Source: a candidate division FCPU426 bacterium
Lineage (GTDB): Bacteria; Oederibacteriota; JAAXVQ01; JAUVAV01
DNA: 64,000 bases
Direction of reading: 5' to 3'
NCBI GenBank assembly: GCA_030637655.1
Contig: DAOWGI010000005.1
Span: forward strand, 4,766 to 68,765
Shown here piece after piece: positions 2,873 to 64,000 of the stretch. The number at the start of each line of letters is the position of its first letter. The first letter of the stretch is position 1. The notes beneath the pieces were generated by a model. That model did not search any database and was not told the DNA's origin. It saw nothing but the letters and a program-made list of their open reading frames with translations. Position numbers and translations under genes: made by a program.

Positions 2873-3316
2873 ATGGGCGCTGAAGACTATACCAGCGATG
2901 TAATTGTAGAAAAAAGAAAATTTCCGCGCAAACCTCTAAATCTGATTGTTCATTTTCACGTAATCTCTTCTAAACCGGGCGAGGAAATGCACGAATCCAC
3001 TGAGAATATAAGTGCCTGCGGGTTGGCCTTTCGTTGCGGGCAAAAGCTGGAAAAGGGACAAAAGATAATGATCACGCTCTATCTTCCACCGAAGGAGAAA
3101 CGCAATGATGATAAAAAAAATTTGGTGTGTCAGGAGGAAGAATGCGCGGAAGTTAAAATTTTTGCACACGTGATCTGGAATATGCCCATGGTTGGAGGCC
3201 GGTTTATTCATGGGGTTGAATTTATATCGGTTGATTTGAAAGACAAAAAATTAATTGATGAATTTCTATACGATTATAGTATGAATCTTCCTAATATTAC
3301 GCAGGCTGACCAATAA
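2873..3316 (+). CDS. PilZ-domain protein (putative c-di-GMP receptor)
   Basis: RKFPRKPLNL ... ENISACGLAF fits RxxxR...DxSxGG PilZ signature; RBS AAGGAAGAGG upstream. Confidence 0.6.
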   Translation: MGAEDYTSDVIVEKRKFPRKPLNLIVHFHVISSKPGEEMHESTENISACGLAFRCGQKLEKGQKIMITLYLPPKEKRNDDKKNLVCQEEECAEVKIFAHVIWNMPMVGGRFIHGVEFISVDLKDKKLIDEFLYDYSMNLPNITQADQ

Positions 3317-9303: not shown

Positions 9304-9500
9304 GCATGTTTAGTCAGAATTCAGGAGTCAAAATAAGAACGTCGGAACGAAATTTTCAAGATTTAATTGTGCGGCAAAAAGTTATCAGTTTATTTTAGGC
9401 GCAAAGACGCATAACATCAACAAAACGTAGAATCTTGTTCTGATTTTATTCTGAATTCTGGATTCTTACTACTGGATACCTGAGTAGTTACTAATAAACA
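9304..9500. repeat. ~190-bp repeat element (family C), inverted copy at 63880..64000
   Basis: 9355..9470 is reverse-complement match to 63890..64000; internal imperfect terminal inverted repeats (agtcagaattcag / ctgaattctga). Confidence 0.6.
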
Positions 9501-10291: not shown

Positions 10292-10422
10292 AAGGCATTG
10301 ATCATTGAGACGCAGTAGGGGCGGGTCCTAGACCCGCCCACCAGATAAATTATTTATAACGATTGTTTTGGGAATTAAAATCAAGTATACTTATTAGCAT
10401 AACAAATCCACAAGGACAAACT

Positions 10423-10851
10423 ATGATTATATCCTATACCGGTAAGGTGAAGGTAGAAAACCGGCGCTTTCCGCGAGTGCGATTTAAACTGGGTATTCAT
10501 TATGCTGAGGTGCAAAAAGGCGAACTGCCCAAACCTCTTCAATCCCTGGCCGAAGATGTGGGTGTCGGTGGTATGGCGATGTATAGTAATAAAAAATTGA
10601 CTAAAGGACAGTTACTTACAGTTAATATTTATCTTCCGCCGGCTGAAAAATATATTAATACTTCCAAAATTCCCGTGTATCTGAAAGAAGAATGCGAACC
10701 GGTTACCTTATTCGCTCGCGTAGTCTGGTGCCACCAGGATAAAAAACACGGATTTCGCGCAGGAATTAAATTTTTCGATGTGGATAAAAAAAATGCAAAG
10801 CAGTTCAAACATTTTTTGGTTGAATACGAATTGGATGAGCCGATTTCGTAA
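10423..10851 (+). CDS. PilZ-domain protein (paralog)
   Basis: ENRRFPRVRF...DVGVGGMAMY PilZ signature; IYLPPAEK...VVWCHQD module shared with 2873 and 6329 paralogs; start at ATG 10423 with AAGGA RBS. Confidence 0.6.
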   Translation: MIISYTGKVKVENRRFPRVRFKLGIHYAEVQKGELPKPLQSLAEDVGVGGMAMYSNKKLTKGQLLTVNIYLPPAEKYINTSKIPVYLKEECEPVTLFARVVWCHQDKKHGFRAGIKFFDVDKKNAKQFKHFLVEYELDEPIS

Positions 10852-11057: not shown

Positions 11058-11429
11058 TCATTTAACCGTCGTTTGATCTTCCAGTACTTCCGAAATAATC
11101 ATATCCCAATCGCTTAATTGTGATAATGTCATAGGTGCTAATTTCAATCCACAGGTAGTACAATTTTTTTGAGCATCCCAGCGTTTCCATTGAATATGAC
11201 CCTGTCCTTTGATTTTTATAAAAGGATTAGGCAAGTCCAGATCAAAATCAAGGTGCTTTTTTTCAATCAATTCCGCGGAAAGGGGAAGTTCAACGCACAT
11301 ACCATTGATGCTGATGTCTTCAATCCTGCCATGTGAGGATATTTTGTGATTTTTTTCCTCATCCTCGTAGGTAAAACGAATAGGAATATCTACTTTCGCG
11401 CGATTGTCTGAACCCCGCTGTTTTTTCAT
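11058..11429 (-). CDS. PilZ-domain protein
   Basis: RAKVDIPIRF...EDISINGMCV fits PilZ motifs; 123 aa; RBS GGAGG in 3' end of upstream gene. Confidence 0.5.
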   Translation of the reverse strand: MKKQRGSDNRAKVDIPIRFTYEDEEKNHKISSHGRIEDISINGMCVELPLSAELIEKKHLDFDLDLPNPFIKIKGQGHIQWKRWDAQKNCTTCGLKLAPMTLSQLSDWDMIISEVLEDQTTVK

Positions 11430-14725: not shown

Positions 14726-16702
14726 GTGAATGGATCCATGCCGGAGTATTGCATTTCTTTGTCTGAAAATAAAAAAATCGCGGTAGCGCCGGGCACTACG
14801 CTGGGAGAAGCCTTAAAACAGCTCAATCCGGCTTTATACGGTAAAGCCTTAGCCATAAAAATCGGAGACCGGTTTTTTGATCTGGCGCGGGAAGTTCCGG
14901 TTGGTGAGAGTCGCATCACAGTCCTGGATTTTGCCTCGCCGGAAGGCCGGGAGGTATTTCGTCATTCCACCGCACATTTGATGGCCGCGGCAGTCAAAGA
15001 ATTGTTCCCGGAAACAAAAGTAACGATTGGTCCTTCCATCAAAGACGGTTTTTATTATGACTTTGACCGGGATACCCATTTTACCCCGGAAAGCCTGGAA
15101 ACCATTGAGAAACGCATGAAAGAGATTGCTCAAAAGAAACTGTCATTTATCAGAAAAGTCGTGTCCAGAGAAGAAGCCCGTGAGTTGTTTGAAAAAACGG
15201 GGGAGACCTACAAGCTTGAATTGCTGGATGCGATTGAACCCGGCCAGGATGTCTCGCTCTATTTTTTAGGAAACTTTGTTGATCTCTGCCGCGGTCCGCA
15301 TATCCCGCACTCCGGCCTGTTAAAAGCATTCAAGTTGCTCTCCGTGGCCGGCGCGTATTGGCGCGGCGATGAAAATAACAAGATGCTGCAACGGATTTAT
15401 GGGATTGGTTTTGAAAAAAATTCGGGTTTAGAAGCATATTTGCAGCGTTTGGAAGAAGCCAAACGCAGGGACCACCGCCGCTTGGGAAAAGATTTGGATC
15501 TTTTTTCTTTTCATGAAGATTCCGGAGCAGGACTAGTGTACTGGCATCCCAAAGGTTCGAAGATTCGCATGCTCATGGAGGATTTCTGGCGAGCAGAGCA
15601 TTTACAGAATGGGTACGAAATTCTCTATACACCGCATATCGGAAAAGCTCAATTGTGGGAGACTTCCGGTCATTTAGCGTTTTATAAGGAATCCATGTAT
15701 GCACCCATGGTTGTTGATGAACTTGATTATTATATCAGACCTATGAATTGTCCTTTTCATATAAAAATATATAAAAGTGATGTGCGCTCCTATCGCCAGT
15801 TGCCAATGCGCTGGGCGGAGTTGGGAACTGTATATCGCTATGAAAAATCCGGCGTTTTGCACGGTTTGTTCCGGGTTAGAGGATTCACTCAGGATGATGC
15901 GCATATTTTCTGCACACACCGGCAATTGGCGGGCGAAATTCAGGAAGTATTGCGATTTGTGCTGTACATTCTAAAAACCTTTGGATTCAAAGAGTATGAA
16001 ATATATCTCTCTACCAAGCCGGAGAAAGATACTGTGGGTAGTGATGAGGTATGGGACCAAGCTACTGAAGCGTTGCGCAAAGCGCTTGAAAATTCAGGCT
16101 TGCCATATGCTGTGGATGAGGGTGGGGGAACCTTTTATGGTCCGAAAGTGGACATAAAAATCAAAGATTGTTTGGATCGAATCTGGCAATGTTCAACCAT
16201 TCAGGTGGATTTTAATTTGCCGGAACGGTTTGATATGAAATATGTTGGTGAAGATGGAAAAGAGCATCGGCCCATCATGATTCATCGGGCCTTAATGGGT
16301 TCCTTGGAGCGCTTCTTCGGAATTATGGTCGAGCATTATGCCGGCGCTTTTCCGGTTTGGCTGGCGCCAGTGCAAGCCAGGATTTGCACTATTGCGGATC
16401 GTCATCAGGAATTTGCCCAAGAAATTGTGAAGCAATTGAAGTCACACGGAATACGCGTTGATATTGATATGAAAAGCGATAAAGTCAATGCTAAAATACG
16501 CAATGCGCAATTAGAAAAGATACCGTACATGCTGGTGGTGGGAGACCGGGAAGTGGAACAGCAGGCAGCAGCCTTGCGGATACGCACCGGAGAAAATCGC
16601 GGTGCCATGCCAATTGAAGAAATCGCGAAATTAATCCAGCGAAAAAACGCGGATAAGGCGCTTGACCTGGTAGAGACGCGATTAATCGCGTCTCTAGATT
16701 AA
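14726..16702 (+). CDS. thrS: threonyl-tRNA synthetase
   Basis: TGS, editing, class II catalytic (HRALMGSLERF) and anticodon-binding regions; last 11 codons and TAA stop lie inside a tandem REP. Confidence 0.9.
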   Translation: MNGSMPEYCISLSENKKIAVAPGTTLGEALKQLNPALYGKALAIKIGDRFFDLAREVPVGESRITVLDFASPEGREVFRHSTAHLMAAAVKELFPETKVTIGPSIKDGFYYDFDRDTHFTPESLETIEKRMKEIAQKKLSFIRKVVSREEARELFEKTGETYKLELLDAIEPGQDVSLYFLGNFVDLCRGPHIPHSGLLKAFKLLSVAGAYWRGDENNKMLQRIYGIGFEKNSGLEAYLQRLEEAKRRDHRRLGKDLDLFSFHEDSGAGLVYWHPKGSKIRMLMEDFWRAEHLQNGYEILYTPHIGKAQLWETSGHLAFYKESMYAPMVVDELDYYIRPMNCPFHIKIYKSDVRSYRQLPMRWAELGTVYRYEKSGVLHGLFRVRGFTQDDAHIFCTHRQLAGEIQEVLRFVLYILKTFGFKEYEIYLSTKPEKDTVGSDEVWDQATEALRKALENSGLPYAVDEGGGTFYGPKVDIKIKDCLDRIWQCSTIQVDFNLPERFDMKYVGEDGKEHRPIMIHRALMGSLERFFGIMVEHYAGAFPVWLAPVQARICTIADRHQEFAQEIVKQLKSHGIRVDIDMKSDKVNAKIRNAQLEKIPYMLVVGDREVEQQAAALRIRTGENRGAMPIEEIAKLIQRKNADKALDLVETRLIASLD

Positions 16703-22503: not shown

Positions 22504-22675
22504 TTGTCATTCCCGAACGGTTTAATCGGCCCCGACCGGAAAAGATATATAGGGACGCATTCGGCAGGAATCTGGTTTTTTAAACCGTATCCCCGATACA
22601 AGCATTCGGGGATGACGGCGTGGAGGCTGCATTCGGGGATGACAAACAAAAAAACGCATGATTGCCATGTTCAGT
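22504..22675. mobile_element. MITE (family A composite) copy 1, long form
   Basis: gtcattcccgaa...ttcggggatgac inverted termini with tail aaacaaaaaaacgcatga...; 5 copies in window. Confidence 0.6.
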
Positions 22676-22705
22676 AATGTCTTCGGGGTTACCCCGCCCT
22701 TACAT

Positions 22706-24692: not shown

Positions 24693-24852
24693 AACCTGTC
24701 AGTGAAGCATTTTTTCAGTTTGTCATTCCCGAACGGTTTAATCGGGAATCTGGTTTTTTAAACCGTATCCCCGATACAAGCATTCGGGGATGACAGGGTG
24801 GGGGCTGCATTCACGGATGACAAACAAAAAAATGCATGACTGACATGTTACA
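24693..24852. mobile_element. MITE (family A composite) copy 2, short form with outer TIRs
   Basis: outer gcaacctgtcagtgaagc ... gactgacatgttaca; inner unit lacks 38-nt segment present in copies 1 and 3. Confidence 0.6.
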
Positions 24853-24860
24853 AATAATGG

Positions 24861-25043
24861 GTAACAGGTCAGTGAGGCGGGAAAAACCTAATCCGGATAA
24901 ACCAGAACCAAGATTAACCGCCGATGAACGCCGATAGACGCAGATATTTATAGCTTAAAAGATAATAAAAATTTTAATCTGTATTTATCGGCGTTCTTAT
25001 TCTGACTCCTGACTCCTGAATTCTGACTACCTGAGTAGTTACG
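24861..25043. repeat. composite repeat: MITE-B-type end (gtaacaggtcagtgagg) joined to family-C-type end (ctgaattctgactacctgagtagttac)
   Basis: shares 5' 45 nt with 62883.. and 31302..31347 (rc); 3' 50 nt with 9451..9495; abuts stop of the 968-aa gene. Confidence 0.5.
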
Positions 25044-28969: not shown

Positions 28970-29037
28970 CTCCTGCCTATTGTTTAAACATATTTAAATA
29001 GTATACTATTCTTTCCAGCTTCGCGCTATGCTTTTAC

Positions 29038-29212
29038 TAACATGTCAGTGAACTGTGGCTAAACAAAGGTTGTCATTCCCGAGGGTTTAATCGGCCCCGA
29101 CCGGAAAAGATATATAGGGACGCATTCGGCAGGAATCTGGTTTTTTAAACCATATCCCCGATACAAGCATTCGGGGATGACAAACAAAAAAAACGCATGA
29201 CTGACATGTTAC
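29038..29212. mobile_element. MITE (family A composite) copy 3, long form with outer TIRs
   Basis: taacatgtcagtgaac...gtcattcccgag...ggggatgacaaacaaaaaaaacgcatgactgacatgttac. Confidence 0.65.
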
Positions 29213-29220
29213 CCTTTTAC

Positions 29221-30048
29221 TTAAGGATGGATTGCTTTCAAATTTTTTTTCTGCATGGCATCCAGAATTTCTTGCTGCAATTGTTTTTCGCGAGTTGTCA
29301 TCCGCGGTGCGATGTTGTCCATAAAAACGATTGCGTCTTTTTCCAACCAGATCATGCCCTTTTTAACACAATACTCCAAATATGACCGGCGATGAAAAAT
29401 ACTGGCGCTGGGATACTCCCGGTCCATAGTTCCCCAAATGGTTTTAGCGATTCTTTGCCCCAGCTTACGGCTGCGATGATACTCAATGACCGATTGCAAT
29501 TCAGTATAGGTGATCCAACCTGACCCGGACAGAAAATATACGGCATCCTCAATAAATTCCGCTTTCTGATGCTCAAAGGAATCCAATGAGAGGATGGCAT
29601 AGCGGGAGAGACCCCAAATATGATTGAATGCCGACCGAAAGTCATCCAGAGTGTGTTCCGGAGCAAAATACTTGATAGTGCGCACTTGTTTGCCGGCGTT
29701 GTCTTTCCAGGCCAGGGCAATTATTCCTTTGGCCGCGTGTGCCCGCAATAAACGACCGCGGTATTTTTTTTTAAGAGCAAAACCGCGTATGCGTTTCATG
29801 GCCAGGAAACATTTGCGGTATTCTTCCCAGGGTACGGTCCCGGTGCGTTTGCCGAGATAGTTTTTCAGCCATACACTTACGGCTTCTCCTTTTTGTTCAA
29901 GAATAAGCGCGGTTTCATCTTGGCGAATGCCGCGTACATCATAGATGACCAACCGTGAAAAGGTGATATCATGGTCTTCAGTATTAGCGGTGACAGGCAG
30001 CAAGGTAAATATCAGAATCGCCGGGAATGCCCAGTGCAGTGTTTTCAT
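29221..30048 (-). CDS. hypothetical secreted protein, translationally coupled to prfB
   Basis: Signal peptide; 4-bp overlap with prfB stop; no recognisable motif. Confidence 0.4.
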   Translation of the reverse strand: MKTLHWAFPAILIFTLLPVTANTEDHDITFSRLVIYDVRGIRQDETALILEQKGEAVSVWLKNYLGKRTGTVPWEEYRKCFLAMKRIRGFALKKKYRGRLLRAHAAKGIIALAWKDNAGKQVRTIKYFAPEHTLDDFRSAFNHIWGLSRYAILSLDSFEHQKAEFIEDAVYFLSGSGWITYTELQSVIEYHRSRKLGQRIAKTIWGTMDREYPSASIFHRRSYLEYCVKKGMIWLEKDAIVFMDNIAPRMTTREKQLQQEILDAMQKKNLKAIHP

Positions 30049-31134: not shown

Positions 31135-31160
31135 ACTCAATGTTATTCTCCTTTGGTATA

Positions 31161-31299
31161 GTAACATGTCAGTGAACTGCGGTTAAACATAAGGTTGTCA
31201 TTCCCGAGGGTTTAATCGGGAATCTGGTTTTTTTAAACCATATCCCCGATACAAGCATTCGGGGATGACAAACAAAAAAACGCTTCACTGACATGATAC
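31161..31299. mobile_element. MITE (family A composite) copy 4, short form
   Basis: gtaacatgtcagtgaactg...gtcattcccgag...ggggatgacaaacaaaaaaacgcttcactgacatgatac; directly upstream of prfB. Confidence 0.65.
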
Positions 31300-33987: not shown

Positions 33988-34164
33988 GAGTGTGAGCATT
34001 TAGTCTGTTTTTTTTATGTTGTCATCCCCGAATGCTCTTATCGGGGATATGGTTTAAAAAACCGGATTCCTGCTGAAGGCGTCCCTATATATCTTTGCCG
34101 GTCGGGGCCGATTAAACCCTCGGGAATGACAACCTTTGTTTAATCACAGTTCACTGACATGTAC
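33985..34164. mobile_element. MITE (family A composite) copy 5, long form, reverse orientation
   Basis: rc of copies 1/3 including 38-nt long-form segment; outer TIR cacagttcactgacatgtac. Confidence 0.6.
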
Positions 34165-40097: not shown

Positions 40098-40769
40098 TCA
40101 ATCGGAAAACGAGACCTTTTTTTTATAATTAATAAACCGAATGGTCAAATTATGCCGTTCGTCACTATCGCGAATTTGAAAGCGTATTTTTTTATAATGT
40201 GTTTTAAGCGGTAATGAATACCTAAACCGTCCGGTAGCGCTATGCAGGACAATTTCTTCAACTTGTTCGGGAGTCGTATATACGTATAATTTTTTAATTG
40301 GTGTCCGGGTAATGCTCTTTTTCTTCTTTTTGCCGGAAGCAATGAAATCCAGTTCCACTTTTATATCAATGCCGTATCGTCGATCAACGCGCACTACATA
40401 CTCGACGCCTCGGTAAAATGGTTTTTCCGCCGGAGCTTTGGTAAGTATGGGCCGCTGTCTCAGTTTTTTTCGTTTTTCTTCTTTCCCGGTTTGGAAATAG
40501 AGATCCTGAGGTTGTTTTACTTGCAATACTTTCAAGGAACGAATCATTATCGCTTTCGTTCGGTTCTGTTTAGTCAAGAACCCGAACATATTTTTAGCAT
40601 TCCAAGGGATTGAGGAATGTTTTTTTGGCAGCGAGGGTGAGGTTGTAAAATCAGTTTCGGATTCTGCACCAGGGCTTGAGTACGCTGTTGGAGTAGCACT
40701 CGCTATTTTACTGCCAAACACCATAAAAAAGCCCAGAACAATAATCACCTGATATTTGGTAGCATTCAT
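40098..40769 (-). CDS. hypothetical secreted protein
   Basis: Signal peptide; Lys-rich; no motif. Confidence 0.35.
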   Translation of the reverse strand: MNATKYQVIIVLGFFMVFGSKIASATPTAYSSPGAESETDFTTSPSLPKKHSSIPWNAKNMFGFLTKQNRTKAIMIRSLKVLQVKQPQDLYFQTGKEEKRKKLRQRPILTKAPAEKPFYRGVEYVVRVDRRYGIDIKVELDFIASGKKKKKSITRTPIKKLYVYTTPEQVEEIVLHSATGRFRYSLPLKTHYKKIRFQIRDSDERHNLTIRFINYKKKVSFSD

Positions 40770-40777
40770 TTTTCTCT

Positions 40778-41100
40778 ACCTGCTTTCCGAAATTAGTATC
40801 TTAGTTCTCAAATTCGTGCTTTTTATCCGCCTTCGCAGAAGACCCCGGCCTTGGCCTAAGATGAATGCGTAAGTTGCTACGGCGTGATGTCGCCCCACCA
40901 CTTGGGCGGATAACCGCGGCGAAGCCGGGTATTCCGGGTACCACGGGCTTGTCCGTGGGGCTCCATGGCAGAAAATTATTCGCCGTAAAGAGCGCAAAGA
41001 ATTTTTTTTGTCAGGATAACAGGATTGACAGAATTTATTTAAAATCCCGTACATCCTGTTAATCCTGTCAAATATCTTTAGTTCCGGCTTGTCCGGGTTA
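40778..41100 (-). repeat. ~160-bp repeat (family E) carrying a 140-nt GC-rich insertion; second uninterrupted copy at 57629..57790
   Basis: rc(41100..40986) and rc(40844..40778) align with 57629..57790; first 3 nt overlap rnd stop codon. Confidence 0.6.
40845..40985 (-). ncRNA. candidate structured RNA / mini insertion (GC-rich, multiple stems) inside family E repeat
   Basis: ~65% GC island in AT-rich intergenic DNA; stems ccacgg/ccgtgg, ccgg/ccgg, ggcc/ggcc; preceded on the minus strand by TTGACA-N17-like promoter sequence; absent from the paralogous copy at 57629. Confidence 0.3.
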
Positions 41101-42339
41101 GATATCTGCGGATTTGCTTTTCTTAACTTCCCCGGCTTTATGTTTGTTTAGTATTTTCTCAATGTCTTGCTCAAATTCCTGTTTTTGCCAAGTGCGTACT
41201 TCATTCCCGGCTTTGTCCAGGGTTTGATAATTCGCCAAACGTTCCAAACTGGACATGGGCCACAACAAGGCTGGATCCAGACCGGAATTTTTTCCCCGGG
41301 CCGCACGCCATGATTTTAAAGCAGTAAAGAGTTCCATGGTTTCAATATTTTTTCGCACAGAGGGTTTGCGTCCGGAGTTTTTTTGCAGTGGAATCGGTGC
41401 AGTAGCTCTTCCCTGTTTCAGTGCCTGATGCAAGGCCGACTGCCGTCGTTTTTGAAATACCACGGCCAATCCTTTAATGTTTTTAAATTCCGCTTCAGGA
41501 CTCCTGGCCAGCGCAATCAACACATCATCACCCATGACACGAAACGGGGCACGATCCATTTCACGGCAAAGTTTTTCCCGGAAAATAGCAACCTGTTGAA
41601 GAACAGCACGCTCCTTATCGTTTAGTTTGCGGCTTCCTTTGACCGACCATAATAAGGCTTCGTCACCAACAGGGCCATCGGATTTTAATTTTTCCAGCAA
41701 TGAAACTTCCTCCAGCGCCCAAGCGTCCCTGCCTTTGTGTTGCAACCGGTGCAGCAATACGTCTTTGAGTTTTAAAAGATAACAAACATCTCCTGCCGCG
41801 TACACTAGTGATTTTTGCTCTAAAGGCCGACAGGTCCAATCCTGCCTCTGCAAGGATTTGCTCTTGGGCAATTCGACACCTAAGAACTCCTGCAAAACAT
41901 TCGACAATCCCAGTTTTTTTGAGCCTAAAAAATGAGCTGCCACAGCAGTATCAAAAAGATTTTTTACGCGAAAACTAAAATCACGATCTAAGGCACGCAA
42001 GTCATTTTCACAGGAATGAAAAACTTTGCAAACCGCGGGATTGGCCAGAAGTTTTCCCAATCCCTTTAGATTGGTGCCAACCAGCGGATCCAGTAAATAA
42101 ACCTGGTCGTACAATCCAATTTGTATCAAGCAGATACGATCAGGATAACGATAGTAACCATTGCTCTCGATGTCCAGCGCTAAAATAGGTTCTTTTTGCA
42201 ACTGTTCAACCAGAGCGTCCCATTCATCCTGGTTGGCAATCAGCCGAAATTGTTTTTTGGCATCATGGGGTATTCCGGCTGCATATGTCTCTGTTTGTTT
42301 CGTTACACTCAATTTAGTTTTTTGTACGCAGGGCGGCAA
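41098..42339 (-). CDS. rnd: ribonuclease D (3'-5' exonuclease + HRDC)
   Basis: DEDDy motifs (LALDIESNGYY..., ...YAAGDVCYL) and C-terminal HRDC-like region. Confidence 0.75.
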   Translation of the reverse strand: MPPCVQKTKLSVTKQTETYAAGIPHDAKKQFRLIANQDEWDALVEQLQKEPILALDIESNGYYRYPDRICLIQIGLYDQVYLLDPLVGTNLKGLGKLLANPAVCKVFHSCENDLRALDRDFSFRVKNLFDTAVAAHFLGSKKLGLSNVLQEFLGVELPKSKSLQRQDWTCRPLEQKSLVYAAGDVCYLLKLKDVLLHRLQHKGRDAWALEEVSLLEKLKSDGPVGDEALLWSVKGSRKLNDKERAVLQQVAIFREKLCREMDRAPFRVMGDDVLIALARSPEAEFKNIKGLAVVFQKRRQSALHQALKQGRATAPIPLQKNSGRKPSVRKNIETMELFTALKSWRAARGKNSGLDPALLWPMSSLERLANYQTLDKAGNEVRTWQKQEFEQDIEKILNKHKAGEVKKSKSADI

Positions 42340-49870: not shown

Positions 49871-51655
49871 TTAACCGGCATAATTCCGTTTGAATATTTT
49901 ATCCAGCTCATCCCAGGAAAGGCGAAAAATATAAGGTCTTCCGTGCGGACAGGTCGGCAATCCTTTCAGGGCTCGCATTTGTTTGATGAGTGCCAGCATG
50001 CTTTCCGGTTGCAGGCGTTCTCCGGCTTTCACAGCTGCTTTGCAGGCCATGCTCTGCAAAATTTTTTCTCTAAACTTGTTTTTATCCATCAGCTTACCGG
50101 TCTCAGCCAGCCACTCAATAACCTCATTGACAATGGCAATCAAATCTCCCTGCGGAAATTGATCCGGTTGGGTTTGAATGGTAAAAGTATTGCCGCCCAA
50201 AGGTGATATTTCCAAACCCATCTCAGAAAACAGTTCCCTTGCCTCAGTGAGCAATCCGGTTTGCGAAGGCTTAAGTTCAAACGTTAAAGGCAGCAATAAA
50301 TTTTGCCGGGGCAAGTCCCGTGGCCATTGCAAAAAGGATTCATAAAGAATTCTTTCGTGAACAGCATGTTGATCCACCAGGAAAAAGCCTTGTTCATCTT
50401 GCACGGCAATATAGGTCCGGCCGACCTGACCAATGACACGCAATGCAACTTCCGCGGATGGTTCTTCCCCGATAGGGGCGCGATTAATCGCGCCCCTACC
50501 ATCTATATATGTAGCAATCGATTCTTTCACCCGGTCTTGGGACCAACCCATTGGCAAGGATTGCGGAGAATAAGTAGGGGCGCGATTAATCGCGCCCCTA
50601 CTTGGTTTTTCCTTAGATGTTGAAATATGCAATAAACTCGAGGGTTTACTGCCGGTCAGATCTCCTTGCTGCAGCACATTTTGGATAGTGGTATAAACCA
50701 AATTGTGAATACCATGTTCATCACGCAAACGCACTTCTCTTTTAGCAGGATGCACATTAACATCAACCAGATGATTAGGCATGGTGAAGAACAAATAGCA
50801 GATCGGAAAACGGCCTTCCGGTATTAGTGTCCTATAGGCTTGAATCACAGCATGCGCGATACCACGATGTTCAACCGGGCGTTGATTGATGAAAAAGCGC
50901 ATGCCGAGCCTGGTATTGCGATGATCAGAGGGATTCGCAATTCGTCCTCGAATCCAAATCCCGCCTGCTTCCCTCTCCACTGGCAGCATATTTTGCGGTA
51001 AAGCACTTCCATACAGTGTTGCCAAGCGGTCGGATAATATTTTAGTAGGCGGACAATTAAAAAGTTCACGCCGGTCTACAATCAGTTTAAAACCAACACG
51101 TTTGTGCGCAATAGCGGCCAACTCTACGACTTGTACAATATGGGATTGTTCAGTGGAATGAGTTTTCATAAATTTGCGGCGGGCCGGAGTATTAAAAAAG
51201 AGATCTTCAACAACAATCGTAGTTCCGGCCGCGCAACCGGTTTCGCCTTTTGACGTGATCTTGCCGCCGGAGAGTTTCATGCGAAATCCCACCGATTTTT
51301 TTTCCGGCCGCGTTAAAATTTCCACCTGGGAGACCGCGGCAATGGATGGCAGGGCTTCCCCGCGAAAACCCAAAGTGTCAATATTTTCCAAATCTTCCGC
51401 TTTACTGATTTTACTGGTCGCGTGCCGGGAAAACGCCAATTGGGCATCCTCCACATTCATACCCTGGCCATCGTCAGTCACGCGTATACTTTGGAAACCG
51501 GCACTTTTAATTTCCACTTCAATTCTGGTCGCCTTGGCATCCAGGGCGTTTTCAAGCAACTCTTTAACCACCGCAGCCGGACGTTCCACCACCTCGCCGG
51601 CGGCAATCAGATTGGCAACCTGATCCGATAATATTTTAATATGTGTATTGGTCAT
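49871..51655 (-). CDS. mutL: DNA mismatch repair protein MutL (with two in-frame REP insertions in linker)
   Basis: GHKL ATPase motifs (ELLENALDA, DDGQGM, GFRGEAL) and C-terminal dimerisation domain; linker contains 2x RGAINRAP encoded by REPs. Confidence 0.9.
   Translation of the reverse strand: MTNTHIKILSDQVANLIAAGEVVERPAAVVKELLENALDAKATRIEVEIKSAGFQSIRVTDDGQGMNVEDAQLAFSRHATSKISKAEDLENIDTLGFRGEALPSIAAVSQVEILTRPEKKSVGFRMKLSGGKITSKGETGCAAGTTIVVEDLFFNTPARRKFMKTHSTEQSHIVQVVELAAIAHKRVGFKLIVDRRELFNCPPTKILSDRLATLYGSALPQNMLPVEREAGGIWIRGRIANPSDHRNTRLGMRFFINQRPVEHRGIAHAVIQAYRTLIPEGRFPICYLFFTMPNHLVDVNVHPAKREVRLRDEHGIHNLVYTTIQNVLQQGDLTGSKPSSLLHISTSKEKPSRGAINRAPTYSPQSLPMGWSQDRVKESIATYIDGRGAINRAPIGEEPSAEVALRVIGQVGRTYIAVQDEQGFFLVDQHAVHERILYESFLQWPRDLPRQNLLLPLTFELKPSQTGLLTEARELFSEMGLEISPLGGNTFTIQTQPDQFPQGDLIAIVNEVIEWLAETGKLMDKNKFREKILQSMACKAAVKAGERLQPESMLALIKQMRALKGLPTCPHGRPYIFRLSWDELDKIFKRNYAG
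50470..50498. repeat. REP-like palindrome (ataggggcgcgattaatcgcgcccctac) inside mutL
   Basis: perfect palindrome; in-frame. Confidence 0.7.
50574..50601. repeat. REP-like palindrome (gtaggggcgcgattaatcgcgcccctac) inside mutL
   Basis: perfect palindrome; in-frame. Confidence 0.7.
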
Positions 51656-51672
51656 AATGTCGTGTCCTTATC

Positions 51673-51700
51673 GTAGAGACGCCCAATTTGGGCGTCTCTC
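51673..51700. repeat. REP-like palindrome gtagagacgcccaatttgggcgtctctc
   Basis: same stem family, loop ccaatttgg. Confidence 0.65.
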
Positions 51701-51782
51701 TTGATTTTCATGGTATTTTTATACCTTGTTTTTGGGATTGTGTCAATTTATGGGTGAATTGATAATGATTGATAATGATATT

Positions 51783-51811
51783 GTAGAGACGCCCAATTTG
51801 GGCGTCTCTAC
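51783..51811. repeat. REP-like palindrome gtagagacgcccaatttgggcgtctctac
   Basis: second copy 110 bp downstream. Confidence 0.65.
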
Positions 51812-53423: not shown

Positions 53424-53532
53424 ACATCACCATTTTTAATTTGTCATTGCCTGTGCCCTCTGGGTACGAGGTGCATTTTACCGAAGCAATCTCAAAAACG
53501 AAAAATAGATGGCTTCTGCGCTGCACACAACA

Positions 53533-54450
53533 TCAACTCCAAGGACCACTCTTGGCCCAGCTCGTTGGGGTAGGACCAGGGCCGACAGCCGCCTTCATAG
53601 GAAGTAGCAGGAAGTCCCTGAGACGCGAAAGCAGTTCCAGAAATTCAGGCACACCTTCTTCGAGACCGCTCCTGCGAACGAATGCTCTCCACTGGACCGA
53701 TTTCACTTCGTCGCTGCTGAACTCATCCGTCAGGACCAACGGCGGCTCGCTTGGGATGTTGGTCTTGCGTCTCTTGAAGGTCGCTTGTATTGCCCGGACA
53801 AGGATATTGCCGTCGAAGGCGAAGTCCCGCGCCAGCACGTAAAGATCGTAGAAATCCTTCATTCGGCTGTTTGCAATACCCAACATGACCATGGCCTGAA
53901 ATTTCTCGGCAACTACTGTTTCACGCGGGCAGGCCCGAATGCTTGGGACCGGGAAATCCAGAAGCGTGGGATAGCTGATCTTCTTGGCCTTGGGTGTGAC
54001 TACGTCACCAAATCCCACATCGACCTGGATGGGAATTCGAGCCTTGCCAAGGAGTGCCGTTAGCGTGACGCGCTGTCCCGGGTATTCCTGTTCTTCACGG
54101 ATGGGCATGGCATTCACGGTGTTGATATCGAATATCAGGCCGTCAGGTTCGACATCAATACCGCACAGGCTGCGGAATACTTCCGTAAGCCGCTCACTGG
54201 AATTGTCACCATAGCCAAGAAAGTCCATGTCCATTGTTGGCCTGTATGACTGTCCCGTCCAAACCATGAACAGCATGGCTCCCTTGAGTATGAAATCCCC
54301 GGCATACGAAGAGACGGAAAGGCGGTAGAGGAGCCTTTCCGTCGCATAACGCGTCCAAACAAAGTTCGGGTCGTCTCCGGTTTCGCGGATTATGTTGAGA
54401 AGCCGCTGGCGAACAGATGCCGCGACGTTCGATGGCTTGTCCTTGGTCAT
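53533..54450 (-). CDS. abiEii: AbiEii/AbiGii-family nucleotidyltransferase toxin (DUF1814)
   Basis: N-terminal SVRQRLLNIIRETGDDPNFVWTRYATERLLYRLS... canonical; GC-rich relative to flanks. Confidence 0.8.
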   Translation of the reverse strand: MTKDKPSNVAASVRQRLLNIIRETGDDPNFVWTRYATERLLYRLSVSSYAGDFILKGAMLFMVWTGQSYRPTMDMDFLGYGDNSSERLTEVFRSLCGIDVEPDGLIFDINTVNAMPIREEQEYPGQRVTLTALLGKARIPIQVDVGFGDVVTPKAKKISYPTLLDFPVPSIRACPRETVVAEKFQAMVMLGIANSRMKDFYDLYVLARDFAFDGNILVRAIQATFKRRKTNIPSEPPLVLTDEFSSDEVKSVQWRAFVRRSGLEEGVPEFLELLSRLRDFLLLPMKAAVGPGPTPTSWAKSGPWS

Positions 54451-55073
54451 ACGATTGCTTCCATGTACGGACGCATGGTCTTGGTCACCCGGCAGATCTT
54501 AGCATACTTCCATAGCTCATCAGTCGAGCGCTTTCGGCCACGCAAAAATTCTCTGAGCGCTTCGAGCGCAACGTCAAGCCCGATCTTGTTCCTGTACTTG
54601 AAGCAGTCTGCCACGGTCTTGGCGGGGTTGTAGATTCTGACCTGTACGCCTTCAATAGTGTGCTCATCGATACCGTCGGTAAGTGCCTTACCAGAGAAAC
54701 GAACAATCCGTGTTTTGGGGTGCCTCGCTCGCGGACGCGCGGCCCTCCGGTTGAGAGCCATCCAGACTTTGTGAGGAGCCTGTGTTCCGATTTCGTGGAA
54801 ACGAAGGGCGGAGAGCAAGCATATTACCCCCTTGGGAACAGCCTTTACCGCCTGCGCTAGTCCGTGGTAAGCTGTTACATCGGCATCCGGCAGACTATAC
54901 AGCCCACGACCATCGCGCACGAGTTTTCCTTTAGCGCACATCTGCCGCAGGTACTCATGGTGAATCCCGTGTGAACGCACCTCGGCTGTGCTCAAAACAC
55001 CTGTATTGCGAGCGAGTTCCAGTATCTGCCCTGTCTTTCCGCCGCTTTTTTTCATATGCGTAATTATATTCAT
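54447..55073 (-). CDS. abiEi: AbiEi-family antitoxin / transcriptional regulator
   Basis: ~200 aa wHTH + C-terminal domain; 4-bp overlap with abiEii. Confidence 0.7.
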   Translation of the reverse strand: MNIITHMKKSGGKTGQILELARNTGVLSTAEVRSHGIHHEYLRQMCAKGKLVRDGRGLYSLPDADVTAYHGLAQAVKAVPKGVICLLSALRFHEIGTQAPHKVWMALNRRAARPRARHPKTRIVRFSGKALTDGIDEHTIEGVQVRIYNPAKTVADCFKYRNKIGLDVALEALREFLRGRKRSTDELWKYAKICRVTKTMRPYMEAIV

Positions 55074-55160
55074 TTTCTAATAAATGTCAATAGTTTAGCA
55101 AAAAGAAATTCGGTGGTGCTGGAGCATTCACTTTGCGTAACTATTCACACTTTTCCGGCC

Positions 55161-55583
55161 CTAAAATGTTGCACTTCTGCTTACAATTCGCCCTTCATCC
55201 AGTTTGGCGATATGCTTTTCAAATTCAAAATGATCAATGATTTCACGAGCGCGTTTGGAAAAACTCTTAATATAATGGCTGAGATTTTTTGTAATATTGG
55301 CAGGCTCACCCTTTAATTTATCAAATGTGAATTTGCTAATGTTATGGAATGATTGACTAGCAACCCGGTTTAAAACCGGTTCAAGATTCTTTACTTTACT
55401 GCTCTTGATGCTTTGGTATTTGGCCAGCACCTTTTCTTTGGTAGGTTCCAACACACAATCCAAACGCCTTAAAACCGTCATTGGCAGTATAACATCTTTG
55501 TATTTTGGTTCGGTCGGTAGGGACCCACGTAATAAATCCTCTACCTGCCATATAAAACTAACTTTTTCGTTAAAATTGTTCAT
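55161..55583 (-). pseudogene. N-terminal fragment of type I restriction-modification N6-adenine methyltransferase (HsdM N-domain)
   Basis: SFIWQVEDLLRG...YKDVILPMTVLRRLD matches HsdM_N; ORF stops after 140 aa, methylase catalytic domain absent. Confidence 0.55.
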
Positions 55584-55587
55584 TAAG

Positions 55588-55615
55588 GTAGGGAACAGGC
55601 ATGCCTGTTCCCTAC
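55588..55615. repeat. REP-like palindrome gtagggaacaggcatgcctgttccctac
   Basis: perfect palindrome with GTAG/CTAC ends. Confidence 0.6.
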
Positions 55616-57617: not shown

Positions 57618-57628
57618 AAGCAACCTCC

Positions 57629-57790
57629 TAACCCGGACAAGCCGGAACCAAAAATATTTGACAGGATTAACCGGATATACGGGATTTTAAATAAATCCTG
57701 TCAATTCTGTCAAAAGAAATTATTTGCGTGCTGATCGGCGAATAATTTTCTGCCATAAAAAGCACGAATTTGAGAAATAAGTTACTAATA
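57629..57790 (+). repeat. family E repeat, uninterrupted copy
   Basis: aligns with rc of 41100..40778 minus the 140-nt GC-rich insert; contains TTGACAGGATTAAC...TTTTAAAT promoter-like segment. Confidence 0.6.
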
Positions 57791-60914: not shown

Positions 60915-61290
60915 GAAGTATGTCTGTAATGTTTCACTCCAGGTTTTTACACTTGGCGATTTTAATCTCATTGGTTTTCAACTTTTTTTTTTTAAAAATT
61001 CTAAAACATTCACTGCCTCCTGCAAAAATAGTTTATCACAGTCACCTTTTTTATTCCGGATTTTATTTTTGTAGCCGCAGGCCGAATTGCCTCACATTAA
61101 ATGTTACAAGGCTGAAATGCCTATAGCCTAATGATATTTGTTGACTCATGAAGGATGTTAATAAACGTTTCTTTTTTTGTCATCCCTATGAATGACAACA
61201 TAAAAAAACCGACCAATTGCTCAAGCTCCTGGCACGATAAGCTGCCACTTGACAAGCCTCTTGACCCGGCATTTCAGCAACCCCTTATTT

Positions 61291-61812
61291 ATATTGTTCA
61301 GCATAATTAGAAAAACCACCGGAATTATGGGCAATTTGATCTCACGCTCCACGCTATCAGACCCCATGTTTAAAATTCTGAGAACACAGCACAGTTTCAT
61401 GAGATTTACAGCTAACATATCTGTATTTGATATGCCTCAACCAGATTCTCAGCACAAGAAAGAGTTAATTCTGTCAATAATCATAGCTCCTCACAACCAG
61501 GAATATATATTCACGTTTTTTATTAAAGTTAGTTGAAATGTACACATTAATTCTGTTCTACTAATTAGAATAACAACAGTATATGTCCTTTACTGTTCCT
61601 GTAAACTCTCATGTAATAAGGCTATTTTTTACTCAGATTTTTTAAGTAATTAATAAATTGCGACTTTAATTTGTGTGTTCTGCATAGTGATTTAGACTTT
61701 ATCTTGAGCTCTAACATCTGATCCTTTACTTTCATTTTGTGATTAATTTCTCAGCCTTCATACTTATTCCCCTGAACATTTAAATAGTTTCTCCAAACAG
61801 AGTAACACAATA
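61291..61812. repeat. ~520-bp AT-rich repeat (family D) copy A
   Basis: ~88% identical to 63203..63737 with 1-nt and 18-nt indels; no conserved reading frame. Confidence 0.65.
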
Positions 61813-62882: not shown

Positions 62883-63115
62883 GTAACAGGTCAGTGAAGT
62901 GCTGTGTTTTGTCAAATAACCCGGAAACATAATCCGGATAAACCGGAACTAAAAAGGTATATTCACCGCAGAGGACGACACATGGATTGTTCTATGTAGA
63001 GACGCGATTAATCGCGTCTCTACAGTTTTTATCCCATCTTTCGGAGGCAAGTCGCGTCCCTGGGAAAAAATAAATTAGCAGACCATATGTCTTTCTCGCT
63101 TCACTGATATGTTAC
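62883..63115. mobile_element. MITE (family B) with TGTAACAGGTCAGTGAAG / CTTCACTGATATGTTACA termini, containing a REP
   Basis: 17-bp TIRs; internal 45 nt shared with 24861 and 31302 copies; REP at 62996..63023. Confidence 0.55.
62996..63023. repeat. REP-like palindrome gtagagacgcgattaatcgcgtctctac
   Basis: identical unit to thrS 3' REP. Confidence 0.7.
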
Positions 63116-63202
63116 AAATGTTTTGAAAAAGTAGGTGGGGTTAGTTCACTTTAATGTGAGAGTAAACACTTGAGTCAGAATTAAAAAAAATCATATTTAT
63201 CT

Positions 63203-63737
63203 TGTTTAGCATAATTGGAGGCCAGACCAGGATTATGGGCAATTTAATCGCATGTCCCACAGTATCAGGCCCCATGTTTAAAATTCTGAGATCACAGCAC
63301 AGTTTCATGAGATTCACAGCTAGGATTTTAACCTCAGCTAACACATCTGCATTTGATATGTCTCAACCAGATTCTCAGCACGAGAAAGAGTTAATCCTGT
63401 CAATAATCTTAGCTCATCAACAACCAGAAATATATATTCACGTTTTTTATTAAAGGTCAGTTGAACTGTATCCCTTAATTCTGTTCTACTAATTAGAATA
63501 ACAACAGCATATATCCTTTACTGTTATTGTAAACTCTCATGTAATAAGGTTATTTCTTATTCAGATTTTTCAAGTAATTAATAAAATGCGACCCTAATAT
63601 ATGTATTCTGCATAGTGAATTAGACTTTATCTTGAGCTCTCACATCTGATCCTTTTCTTTCATTTTGTAATTAATTTATAAACCTTCATACTTATTTCCC
63701 TAAACATTTAAATAGTTTCTCCAAACAGAGTAACAAC
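63203..63737. repeat. ~520-bp AT-rich repeat (family D) copy B
   Basis: direct repeat of 61291..61812. Confidence 0.65.
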
Positions 63738-63879: not shown

Positions 63880-64000
63880 CAACTACTCAGGTATCCGGTA
63901 GTCAGAATTCAGAATAAAATCATAACAATATTCTACGTTTTGTTGATGTTATGCGTCTTTGCGCCTAAAACAAACTGATGACTTTTTGCCGCACAATTAA
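63880..64000. repeat. family C element, inverted partial copy (runs off window)
   Basis: reverse complement of 9355..9470. Confidence 0.6.

Follow-up and report, generated by a model that had tools for sequence, protein, structure and literature searches.

A 140-nt GC-rich block that interrupts a repeat in a candidate division FCPU426 contig is probably a gene-less IS200/IS605-type element

Results

A 140-nt block interrupts one of two copies of a repeat

We analyzed a 64,000-nt stretch of DNA from a candidate division FCPU426 bacterium (GenBank assembly GCA_030637655.1, contig DAOWGI010000005.1, positions 4,766 to 68,765 of the forward strand; hereafter the window, with all coordinates counted from its first nucleotide), and in particular a 140-nt GC-rich block that lies upstream of a gene for a 223-aa hypothetical protein (40098..40769) and splits one of the two copies of a repeat, repeat E. 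Judged by its anatomy, the block is probably a gene-less, non-autonomous element of the IS200/IS605 type, similar to the palindrome-associated transposable elements (PATEs), that was inserted in repeat E; we put the probability of this reading at about 0.7. An initial annotation of the region had offered 2 ideas, a small RNA or a mini mobile element. The second was borne out by an exact empty site, relatives in other genomes, contigs with several copies, an insertion into a transposase gene, and ends that resemble those of IS200/IS605 elements. The first was not: the block has no Rfam match and folds no better than shuffled sequences, covariation is unfavourable, and the relatives show no orientation bias.

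The 2 copies of repeat E (Table 1) were compared by pairwise alignment and blastn. Copies A and B are 84.7% identical over 137 nt, after which copy B shows a gap of 140 nt and the alignment resumes with 94.3% identity over 35 nt. The minus-strand spacer upstream of 40098..40769 had been said to match 57629..57790 almost base for base; the match is real (57628..57789), but with 85% identity and an 8-nt indel it is not near-identity. Read on the minus strand, the junctions of copy A are CTGCCAT^GGAGCC...GGCGGAT^AAAAAGC (the caret marks a junction), and copy B reads CTGCCAT^AAAAAGC without interruption. On the plus strand, the filled site of copy A is GCTTTTTAT^140 nt^GGCAG and the empty site of copy B is GCTTTTTAT^GGCAG. 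The insertion is thus scarless, and the block is indeed missing from the second copy, as had been proposed. Its length is exactly 140 nt, at 40827-40966 or, equivalently, 40825-40964, because of a 2-nt AT ambiguity at both junctions; the interruption had been given the correct length but was placed at 40845..40985, approximately 20 nt away. With 63.6% GC, compared with approximately 43% in the window, the block is nearly as GC-rich as the 65% initially estimated. Blastn and nhmmer found it only once within the 64-kb window, and whole-length relatives were found in other genomes. Repeat E may have been duplicated before the insertion, or copy B may have been freed of the element by scarless excision; the data fit either.

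Table 1. Features of the window, with positions counted from its first nucleotide.
Feature	Position	Strand	Evidence or remark
Inserted element, PATE-like non-autonomous IS200/IS605-type (probable)	40827..40966	+ (top strand)	Empty copy B; 81-82% identity to L011/L028
TTTAT, target-derived transposon-adjacent motif directly 5' of left end	40822..40826	+	Once in filled site, once in empty site of copy B
Left-end terminal segment CCGCCTTCGCAGAAGA; CCGCCTACGCAGAATA conserved in relatives	40827..40842	+	Alignment
Decayed left hairpin, CCCCGGCCTTGGCCTAAG versus CCACGGGCTTGTCCGTGG in relatives; 3' arm lost	40843..40860	+	Alignment
Internal segment with family motifs GAATGCGTAAG, TGCTACGGCG.GATGTCGCCCC, GGGCGGATAA and small GC hairpins	40861..40936	+	Alignments
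GGTA, putative right-end DNA guide, 4 nt 5' of hairpin foot	40937..40940	+	Complementary to terminal CCAT
Right subterminal hairpin CCACGG-GCTTGT-CCGTGG, 18 nt	40941..40958	+	DNA fold z = -2.6
TCCAT, end motif, ends 8 nt 3' of hairpin foot	40962..40966	+	
Repeat E copy A, split by element	40792..41101	-	Repeat parts 40792-40826 and 40967-41101; alignment/blastn
Repeat E copy B, unbroken	57628..57789	+	Empty site between 57756 and 57757 (CTGCCAT^AAAAAGC)
Recurrences of first 20-25 nt of repeat E	41082-41101, 57629-57648, 62925-62955, 24885-24911		
Downstream gene, 223-aa hypothetical protein	40098..40769	-	Signal-peptide-like N-terminus; no Pfam domain
Upstream gene, RNase D-like (DNA_pol_A_exo1 + HRDC)	41098..42339	-	Stop TAA is first 3 nt of repeat E
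MITE-like family, approximately 100 nt	22519-22680, 24697-24851, 29035-29236, 31159-31299, 34009-34162		
REP-like units	16666-16696, 50468-50498, 50570-50600, 62992-63022, 51669-51699, 51779-51809		
Direct duplication, approximately 520 nt in pieces	61286-61807, 63194-63735		84-97% identical, 1.9-kb spacing
Inverted repeat pair, 98 nt	9363-9460, 63903-64000		96% complementary, 54 kb apart
Small stand-alone PilZ-domain proteins	2873-3316, 10363-10851, 11058-11429		Within 9 kb
GC-rich region	53500-55600		54.6% GC versus approximately 43% elsewhere

The inverted repeat that had been described in repeat E (TTGACAGGATTAACAGGA / TCCTGTTATCCTGACAA) was found in copy A. The first 20 to 25 nt of repeat E (TAAYCCGGAYAARCCGGAAC, with a small CCGG-loop-CCGG hairpin) occur at 4 places in the window (Table 1). 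Since 2 of these lie outside repeat E, this repeat is possibly composite.

The block has distinct ends, of which the left one is decayed

On the top strand (the plus strand of the window), the block starts directly after TTTAT. This pentanucleotide derives here from the target rather than from the element, since copy B has it in its empty site as well. The right end of the window copy is intact, with its putative guide, its hairpin, and the TCCAT end motif. The left subterminal hairpin is kept in 4 related loci (L028, L012, L021, and L033) and is decayed in the window copy. Because this hairpin is mutated and both ends are required for excision by the rules of the elements IS608 and ISGst2, the window copy is probably stranded, and it is most likely a decayed, immobile member of its family. 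The ends do not form terminal inverted repeats (compare CCGCCTTCGCAG... at the 5' end with ATGGAGCCCCAC... in the reverse complement of the 3' end), and the same holds for the relatives.

Relatives with the same ends occur in other genomes

The family was collected by scanning genome and metagenome collections with an exact 20-mer from the best hairpin (CCACGGACAAGCCCGTGGTA), and coding coincidences (L009, L013, L014-L020, and L025) were dropped. Two size classes were obtained: long forms of 114 to 204 nt (L011, L012, L021 [= L029], L028, L033, and L035 [= L008]), and short forms of 45 to 46 nt (L010 [= L023], L022, L024 [= L032], L026, L027, L030, L031, and L034). Over its whole length the window block is identical to L011 at 110 of 134 positions (z = 20.6) and to L028 at 110 of 136 (z = 19.3). 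The contigs that host the relatives range from 31% to 56% GC and come from unrelated sediment metagenome-assembled genomes (MAGs) labelled as Atribacterota, Alphaproteobacteria, and unclassified bacteria, among others, although these are MAG labels and the binning of short contigs is uncertain. In 4 cases (L035, L032, L031, and L028) 2 copies were present on one contig. No match to the element was found among plasmids or phages by blastn, 3 scans of viral contigs gave either nothing or chance coding matches (T-T-D-K-P-V), and the hairpin sequence was not met in a literature search.

The CCACGG/CCGTGG stem is invariant in all members collected with the hairpin seed, while the loops vary (ACAAGC, GCAAGC, GTATAC, GTAAAC, GCAAAC, TTAATG, and GGAAAGC). 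In L034 (8185-8202), a short form with the usual flanks, the loop is reverse-complemented relative to these flanks (ACAAGC versus GCTTGT). A fixed stem with a free, even inverted, loop fits recognition of a DNA hairpin by a protein. Kinship with a repeat family of the window that has ACAAGC hairpin loops (D2) was considered and rejected, as the loop is variable in the family of the block and hairpins with ACAAGC loops form no genome-wide class.

The relatives sit between unrelated genes, between 2 tRNA genes (L011), and inside an open reading frame (ORF; L027), and relative to the neighbouring genes approximately 7 have the same and approximately 6 the opposite orientation. In L011 (1995-2312) the long form fills the spacer between the 2 tRNA genes, its right end touching the first base of a tRNA and its top strand being co-oriented. 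What sets the 2 long copies of L035 (3089-3232 and 12918-13105) apart is a 39-nt GC hairpin (CCCGCC...GGCGGG) inside the element, with CCCG repeats on either side; the repeated unit is larger than the element in this case because homology continues for more than 50 nt into the flanks.

Insertions are scarless, often lie 3' of TTTAT, and have ends that may covary with putative internal guides

To compare insertion sites, all instances were oriented to the strand equivalent to the plus strand of the window, which gave 15 independent sites. The left flank was TTTAT in 8 of them, TCTAT in 2, and TTTGT, TCCAT, ATTAT, TATAT, or TTAAT in 1 each. The enrichment of TTTAT is highly significant (binomial P ~5e-17, with a background of 0.3% in these loci). 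At the right, members of the family terminate in TCCAT, TCCAC, TCTAC, or CTCAT, 8 to 10 nt past the hairpin. At the left, short forms are cut 19 nt before the foot of their single hairpin, and in long forms this distance is 16 to 20 nt.

A second filled and empty pair came from L027, where a 46-nt short form lies inside an ORF for an ISNCY-like transposase and shifts its frame. The more than 1000 homologues of this transposase read ...EKNI(V/I/L)KEL... at the insertion point. The uninterrupted homologues L037 and L038 read GAGAAAAATATTGTAAAAGAAC, i.e., GAGAAAAATATTGT^AAAAGA, and L027 reads GAGAAAAATATTGT^46 nt^AAAAGAGC. Judged from this sequence comparison, L027 is a second precise, duplication-free insertion. 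Neither the window pair nor the L027 pair shows a target-site duplication, with a junction ambiguity of 1 to 2 nt.

The tetranucleotide 5' of the right hairpin appears to covary with the end motif. Register-matched pairs of guide and end are GGTA and CCAT in the window, L021, and L033, AGTA and TCAT in L011, and GGTG and CCAC in one copy of L035 (L035b); the pair in the other (L035a), GGTA and CCAC, has one mismatch. Over 8 right ends, 28 of 32 positions are complementary and 2 changes are compensatory, in a set of few and related copies. The AATA that precedes the left or the single hairpin is complementary to the target TTAT.

These results also bear on 2 other origins of the block that we find scarcely credible, namely a classical cut-and-paste miniature inverted-repeat transposable element (MITE), with a DDE transposase, terminal inverted repeats, and a short target duplication such as AT, or the leftover of a deleted GC-rich gene. 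The AT at both window junctions can be read as a 2-bp duplication, but in L027 one junction has the dinucleotide AT and the other AC, scarless insertion agrees with the homologous empty sites, and the ends are not inverted repeats (GGAGCCCC... versus the reverse complement ATCCGCCTTC...). Likewise, an ORF (40776..41054) spans the block, but the relatives differ in frame and carry stops, so that no protein is conserved, and their boundaries are conserved across genomes, which is unexpected for a random gene relic. The initial annotation had linked a single copy to a gene relic; the block is single-copy in 64 kb, but the relic is excluded because relatives in other genomes share the conserved ends.

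The block does not behave as an RNA gene or leader

A functional small RNA, or a cis-regulatory leader of the 223-aa gene, with a minus-strand transcript that starts in repeat E, would fit the position of the block, which follows a promoter-like palindrome, stops 55 nt short of the ATG, and has the sense orientation in the direction in which it was first read. It would also fit its GC richness and several hairpins, and the L021 relative is likewise located approximately 20 nt upstream of a gene start. We nevertheless regard this explanation as very improbable. At the gathering score, Rfam 15 had no hit anywhere in the window; at E <= 10, the region 40700-41200 gave only microRNA-like chance hits on the palindrome of repeat E and none on the element, and at the gathering score none was found on the element in 13 related loci. 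This agrees with the first impression, by motif, that the block is not SRP RNA, tmRNA, RNase P RNA, or a common riboswitch. The block had also been called highly structured, which is an effect of its composition: its minimum free energy is -56.4 kcal/mol, with z = -1.2 versus dinucleotide shuffles whether folded as RNA or DNA, the one exception within it being the 18-nt hairpin at 40941-40958 (z = -2.6). RNAalifold on 4 long forms gave a covariation term of +2.25 kcal/mol, which is unfavourable, and compensatory changes in 2 of 28 pairs, the stems being invariant rather than covarying. Furthermore, occurrence in both orientations, beside unrelated genes, between tRNA genes, and inside an ORF is a pattern unlike that of a cis-acting RNA element.

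Nor was the promoter-like segment (TTGACA-N17) in repeat E upheld, since TTGACA on that strand lacks an acceptable -10 hexamer at 16 to 18 nt. In the palindrome of repeat E, a consensus scan of the opposite strand found TTGACA-18-TAAAAT in copy B, facing a gene for a STAS-domain protein, and a weaker ATAACA-18-TAAAAT in copy A. Two further candidates were rejected. A leader peptide (ATG GAG CCC CAC GGA...) was discarded because its frame is not preserved in relatives with 7-nt loops and the stops differ. A group II intron fragment, suggested by a D1-D4 hit 234 nt from the L032 short form, was discarded as there is no domain V/VI match and no such link at other loci. The intron part itself (L032, 6030-6270; Rfam D1-D4-3, 117 bits) begins with GTGCG after a terminator-like hairpin, in a class-C-like placement, and is followed by neither an ORF nor domain V/VI, the short-form element being located downstream.

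An RNA role of another kind would add a function to the IS200/IS605 reading rather than replace it: the element could be a PATE that has retained a guide (omega) RNA, which a TnpB or IscB nuclease encoded elsewhere in the genome would employ in trans. Gene-less PATEs "often encode omega RNAs" (PMC10055086), such scaffolds are of a similar length to the long forms, and the window copy is best preserved at its right end. We still hold this addition to be improbable. Covariation does not support a conserved top-strand fold, the plus strand has no promoter-like site directed into the right end, and the most conserved part among long forms is proximal to the left end. No tnpB or iscB gene was present among the small window ORFs scanned. 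In addition, the would-be target, TTTAT followed by GGCAGAAAATTATTCGCC, is intact in copy B of repeat E, and its survival argues, weakly, against an active pair of nuclease and guide.

Assignment to the IS200/IS605 class

IS608 is cut at its left end 3' of TTAC, 19 nt 5' of the foot of the left hairpin, and at its right end at TCAA, 10 nt 3' of the foot of the right hairpin; both cleavage motifs are read by the 4 bases located 5' of each hairpin, the donor joint is scarless, and insertion produces no duplication (PMC3201880). The present family shares with IS608 the geometry of the cuts, putative guides of 4 nt, the absence of terminal inverted repeats and target-site duplications, and insertion 3' of a tetra- or pentanucleotide. 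It differs in the motifs (TTAC/TCAA in IS608 versus TTTAT/TCCAY here), in a perfect 6- to 7-bp stem without an obvious extrahelical base, and in the left distance of its long forms (16-20 nt). In ISGst2 of Geobacillus stearothermophilus, the transposon-adjacent motif (TAM) is TTTAT and the transposon-encoded end motif is TTCAC, and each changes in concert with a DNA guide inside the element (Meers et al. 2023, PMC10055086). Gene-less PATE-like copies of the Geobacillus ISGst elements have also been described, with mobilisation presumed to occur in trans (PMC10055086). The TAM is the same here, and the end motif is TCCAC, TCCAT, or TCTAC instead of TTCAC. Subterminal hairpins on the top strand, scarless donor joints, gene-less short copies, and, as it appears, guide covariation are common to both families, whereas the hosts here are uncultured sediment bacteria of several phyla and the minimal form has 46 nt and a single hairpin. 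This likeness is one of motifs and architecture, and the present family is known without a linked tnpA, tnpB, or omega RNA. We file the block with the PATE-like IS200/IS605 elements because the TAM is that of ISGst2 and the end motif deviates at one position.

If this assignment is correct, the element would move as single-stranded DNA with a Y1 (HUH) transposase supplied in trans. At both ends of the top strand the enzyme would bind a subterminal hairpin, and it would recognize its short cleavage motifs through their pairing with the 4 to 5 nt located 5' of each hairpin. The strand would then leave as a circle, with the donor resealed free of scars, and the circle would be pasted 3' of a short target motif, in this case 3' of TTTAT in repeat E with the top strand on the plus strand of the window.

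Several observations weigh against this reading. The left end of the window copy folds into no significant hairpin (DNA fold z = +0.7), where 2 hairpins are required. In the short forms the AATA guide of the single hairpin matches the target and not their own right-end motif, and the left ends of L021 and L033 break the simple guide rule. The cuts are ambiguous by 2 nt in the window and shift in L027 with the assumed ancestral codon (GTA or ATA), so the TAM could be TTTT or TTTTA instead of TTTAT. The stem appears more invariant than it is, and diverged members are missing, because the collection was made with an exact 20-mer inside the hairpin. The copy number is low: one copy in 64 kb, and no further copies in 2 related genomes (81-82% YebC identity; approximately 20 kb each, approximately 40 kb in total). 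No transposase was obvious in the flanks inspected beside the relatives, which are parts of the MAGs, and 10 small or ambiguous ORFs of the window gave other Pfam families and no Y1 transposase, TnpB, or IscB. The connection to IS200/IS605 is drawn from anatomy, and no autonomous element with these ends turned up, none having been searched for.

Spread of the element as a repetitive extragenic palindrome (REP or REPIN) by a domesticated REP-associated tyrosine transposase (RAYT, TnpA-REP), instead of an IS200/IS605 transposase, is unlikely. The chemistry class would be the same (Y1 HUH with hairpin recognition, the enzyme superfamily being presumed identical), and the short forms are, like REPs, short GC-rich extragenic hairpins of 45 to 46 nt with several copies per contig, some ending in CTAC (GTAG when the complementary strand is read). 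The window also holds classic GTAG palindromes of another family (see below). In the family of the block, however, the hairpin is preceded on the active strand by GGTA or AATA and not by GTAG, and the copies are single instead of inverted doublets. Their distinct left and right ends and their scarless, target-specific insertion beside TTTAT, even in coding sequence, are transposon-like, and no RAYT gene was found among the small window ORFs scanned.

Neighbouring genes and contigs of the same organism

The element is antisense to the 223-aa gene, its edge being located 55 to 57 nt upstream of the ATG, and it probably has no host function. The 223-aa protein is identical on 7 public contigs, from GCA_023139775.1 (locus tags KAR34) and from ENA/Logan assemblies of SRR138925xx/138926xx runs. 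The YebC protein encoded in the window shares 70-75% identity with proteins from MAGs of candidate division FCPU426, which makes this lineage the probable one of the host. No insertion polymorphism was found in this organism, as the spacer including the block is identical on the 3 of 3 contigs that extend upstream. Two independent Logan contigs (L004 and L007, from SRR13892585 and SRR13892604) both begin at AAAGCACGAATTTG, 2 nt past the block boundary; this shared start could be a branch of the assembly graph at the insertion site, due to polymorphism or to a repeat, or a coincidence.

In a more distant relative (L036, Ga0675941_043912, 64% protein identity) the orthologous spacer contains neither repeat E nor a homologous block. 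At positions 810-982, this spacer has a hairpin (CCACGGGC ... GCCCGTGGTATTTTTG) with 46 AT-rich nt in its loop and a GGCGAACATC motif on the other strand. This separate remnant (CCACGGGC...GCCCGTGG) could stem from an older element of the same superfamily that occupied the spacer independently of the block.

Other repeats and features of the window

The window contains further repeats (Table 1). A MITE-like family of approximately 100 nt, with terminal inverted repeats (GTTGTCATTCCCGA / TCGGGGATGACAAAC) and an internal hairpin (ATCCCCGATACAAGCATTCGGGGAT), provides a second pair of sites with and without an insertion: a nested 37-nt insert (CCCCGACCGGAAAAGATATATAGGGACGCATTCGGCA) lies between TTTAATCGG and GAATCTGG in 3 of its 5 copies and is missing from 2. 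The REP-like units consist of GTAG and a perfect GC-rich palindrome (GTAGAGACGCGATTAATCGCGTCTCTAC, GTAGAGACGCCCAATTTGGGCGTCTCT), and some of them are paired at a distance of approximately 100 to 110 nt. The direct duplication of approximately 520 nt holds a TTAAT(T/C)CTGTCAATAATC motif that resembles an arm of the repeat E palindrome, and the second arm of the 98-nt inverted repeat pair reaches the end of the window.

Among the genes, 3 encode small stand-alone PilZ-domain proteins, and PilZ genes are also conserved beside yebC in relatives. The GC-rich region at 53500-55600, which may be a foreign island, closes with an ORF (55161-55583) for an isolated N-terminal domain of HsdM.

Discussion

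The kind of mobile element to which the block is assigned, an IS200/IS605 PATE, is already known. PATEs of Haloquadratum walsbyi and of other archaea and bacteria are reportedly gene-less, hairpin-ended, MITE-sized derivatives of IS200/IS605 (IS1341-type) elements in intergenic positions. The present elements belong to another sequence family and have bacterial hosts, and the window copy is nested in a repeat and has a decayed left end.

For the annotation of this genome, the most RNA-like block of the window would be debris of mobile DNA, which removes a false lead. The region upstream of 40098..40769 would be a nest of 2 repeats and not a riboswitch or a small-RNA gene, and the element in it is probably inert.

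At the level of the family, the analysis describes a previously unnamed group of hairpin transposons with the signature TTTAT^CCGCCTWCGCAGAA ... CCACGG-N6-CCGTGG ... TCCAY and a minimal form of 46 nt. An identity of approximately 80% across sediment bacteria of 31% to 56% GC implies a recent horizontal spread of the IS200/IS605 element that drives the family. It is conceivable, if improbable, that the long forms carry an orphan omega-type guide RNA for TnpB or IscB in trans and that the 46-nt form is among the smallest self-contained mobile units, shared by several phyla in anoxic sediments. Were the guide reading true, the window would hold both a copy bearing a guide and, 17 kb away in copy B of repeat E, a natural homing target flanked by TTTAT. 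Families of this type yield new TnpA specificities and guide RNAs of TnpB and IscB, and the signature can be used as a key to search for them.

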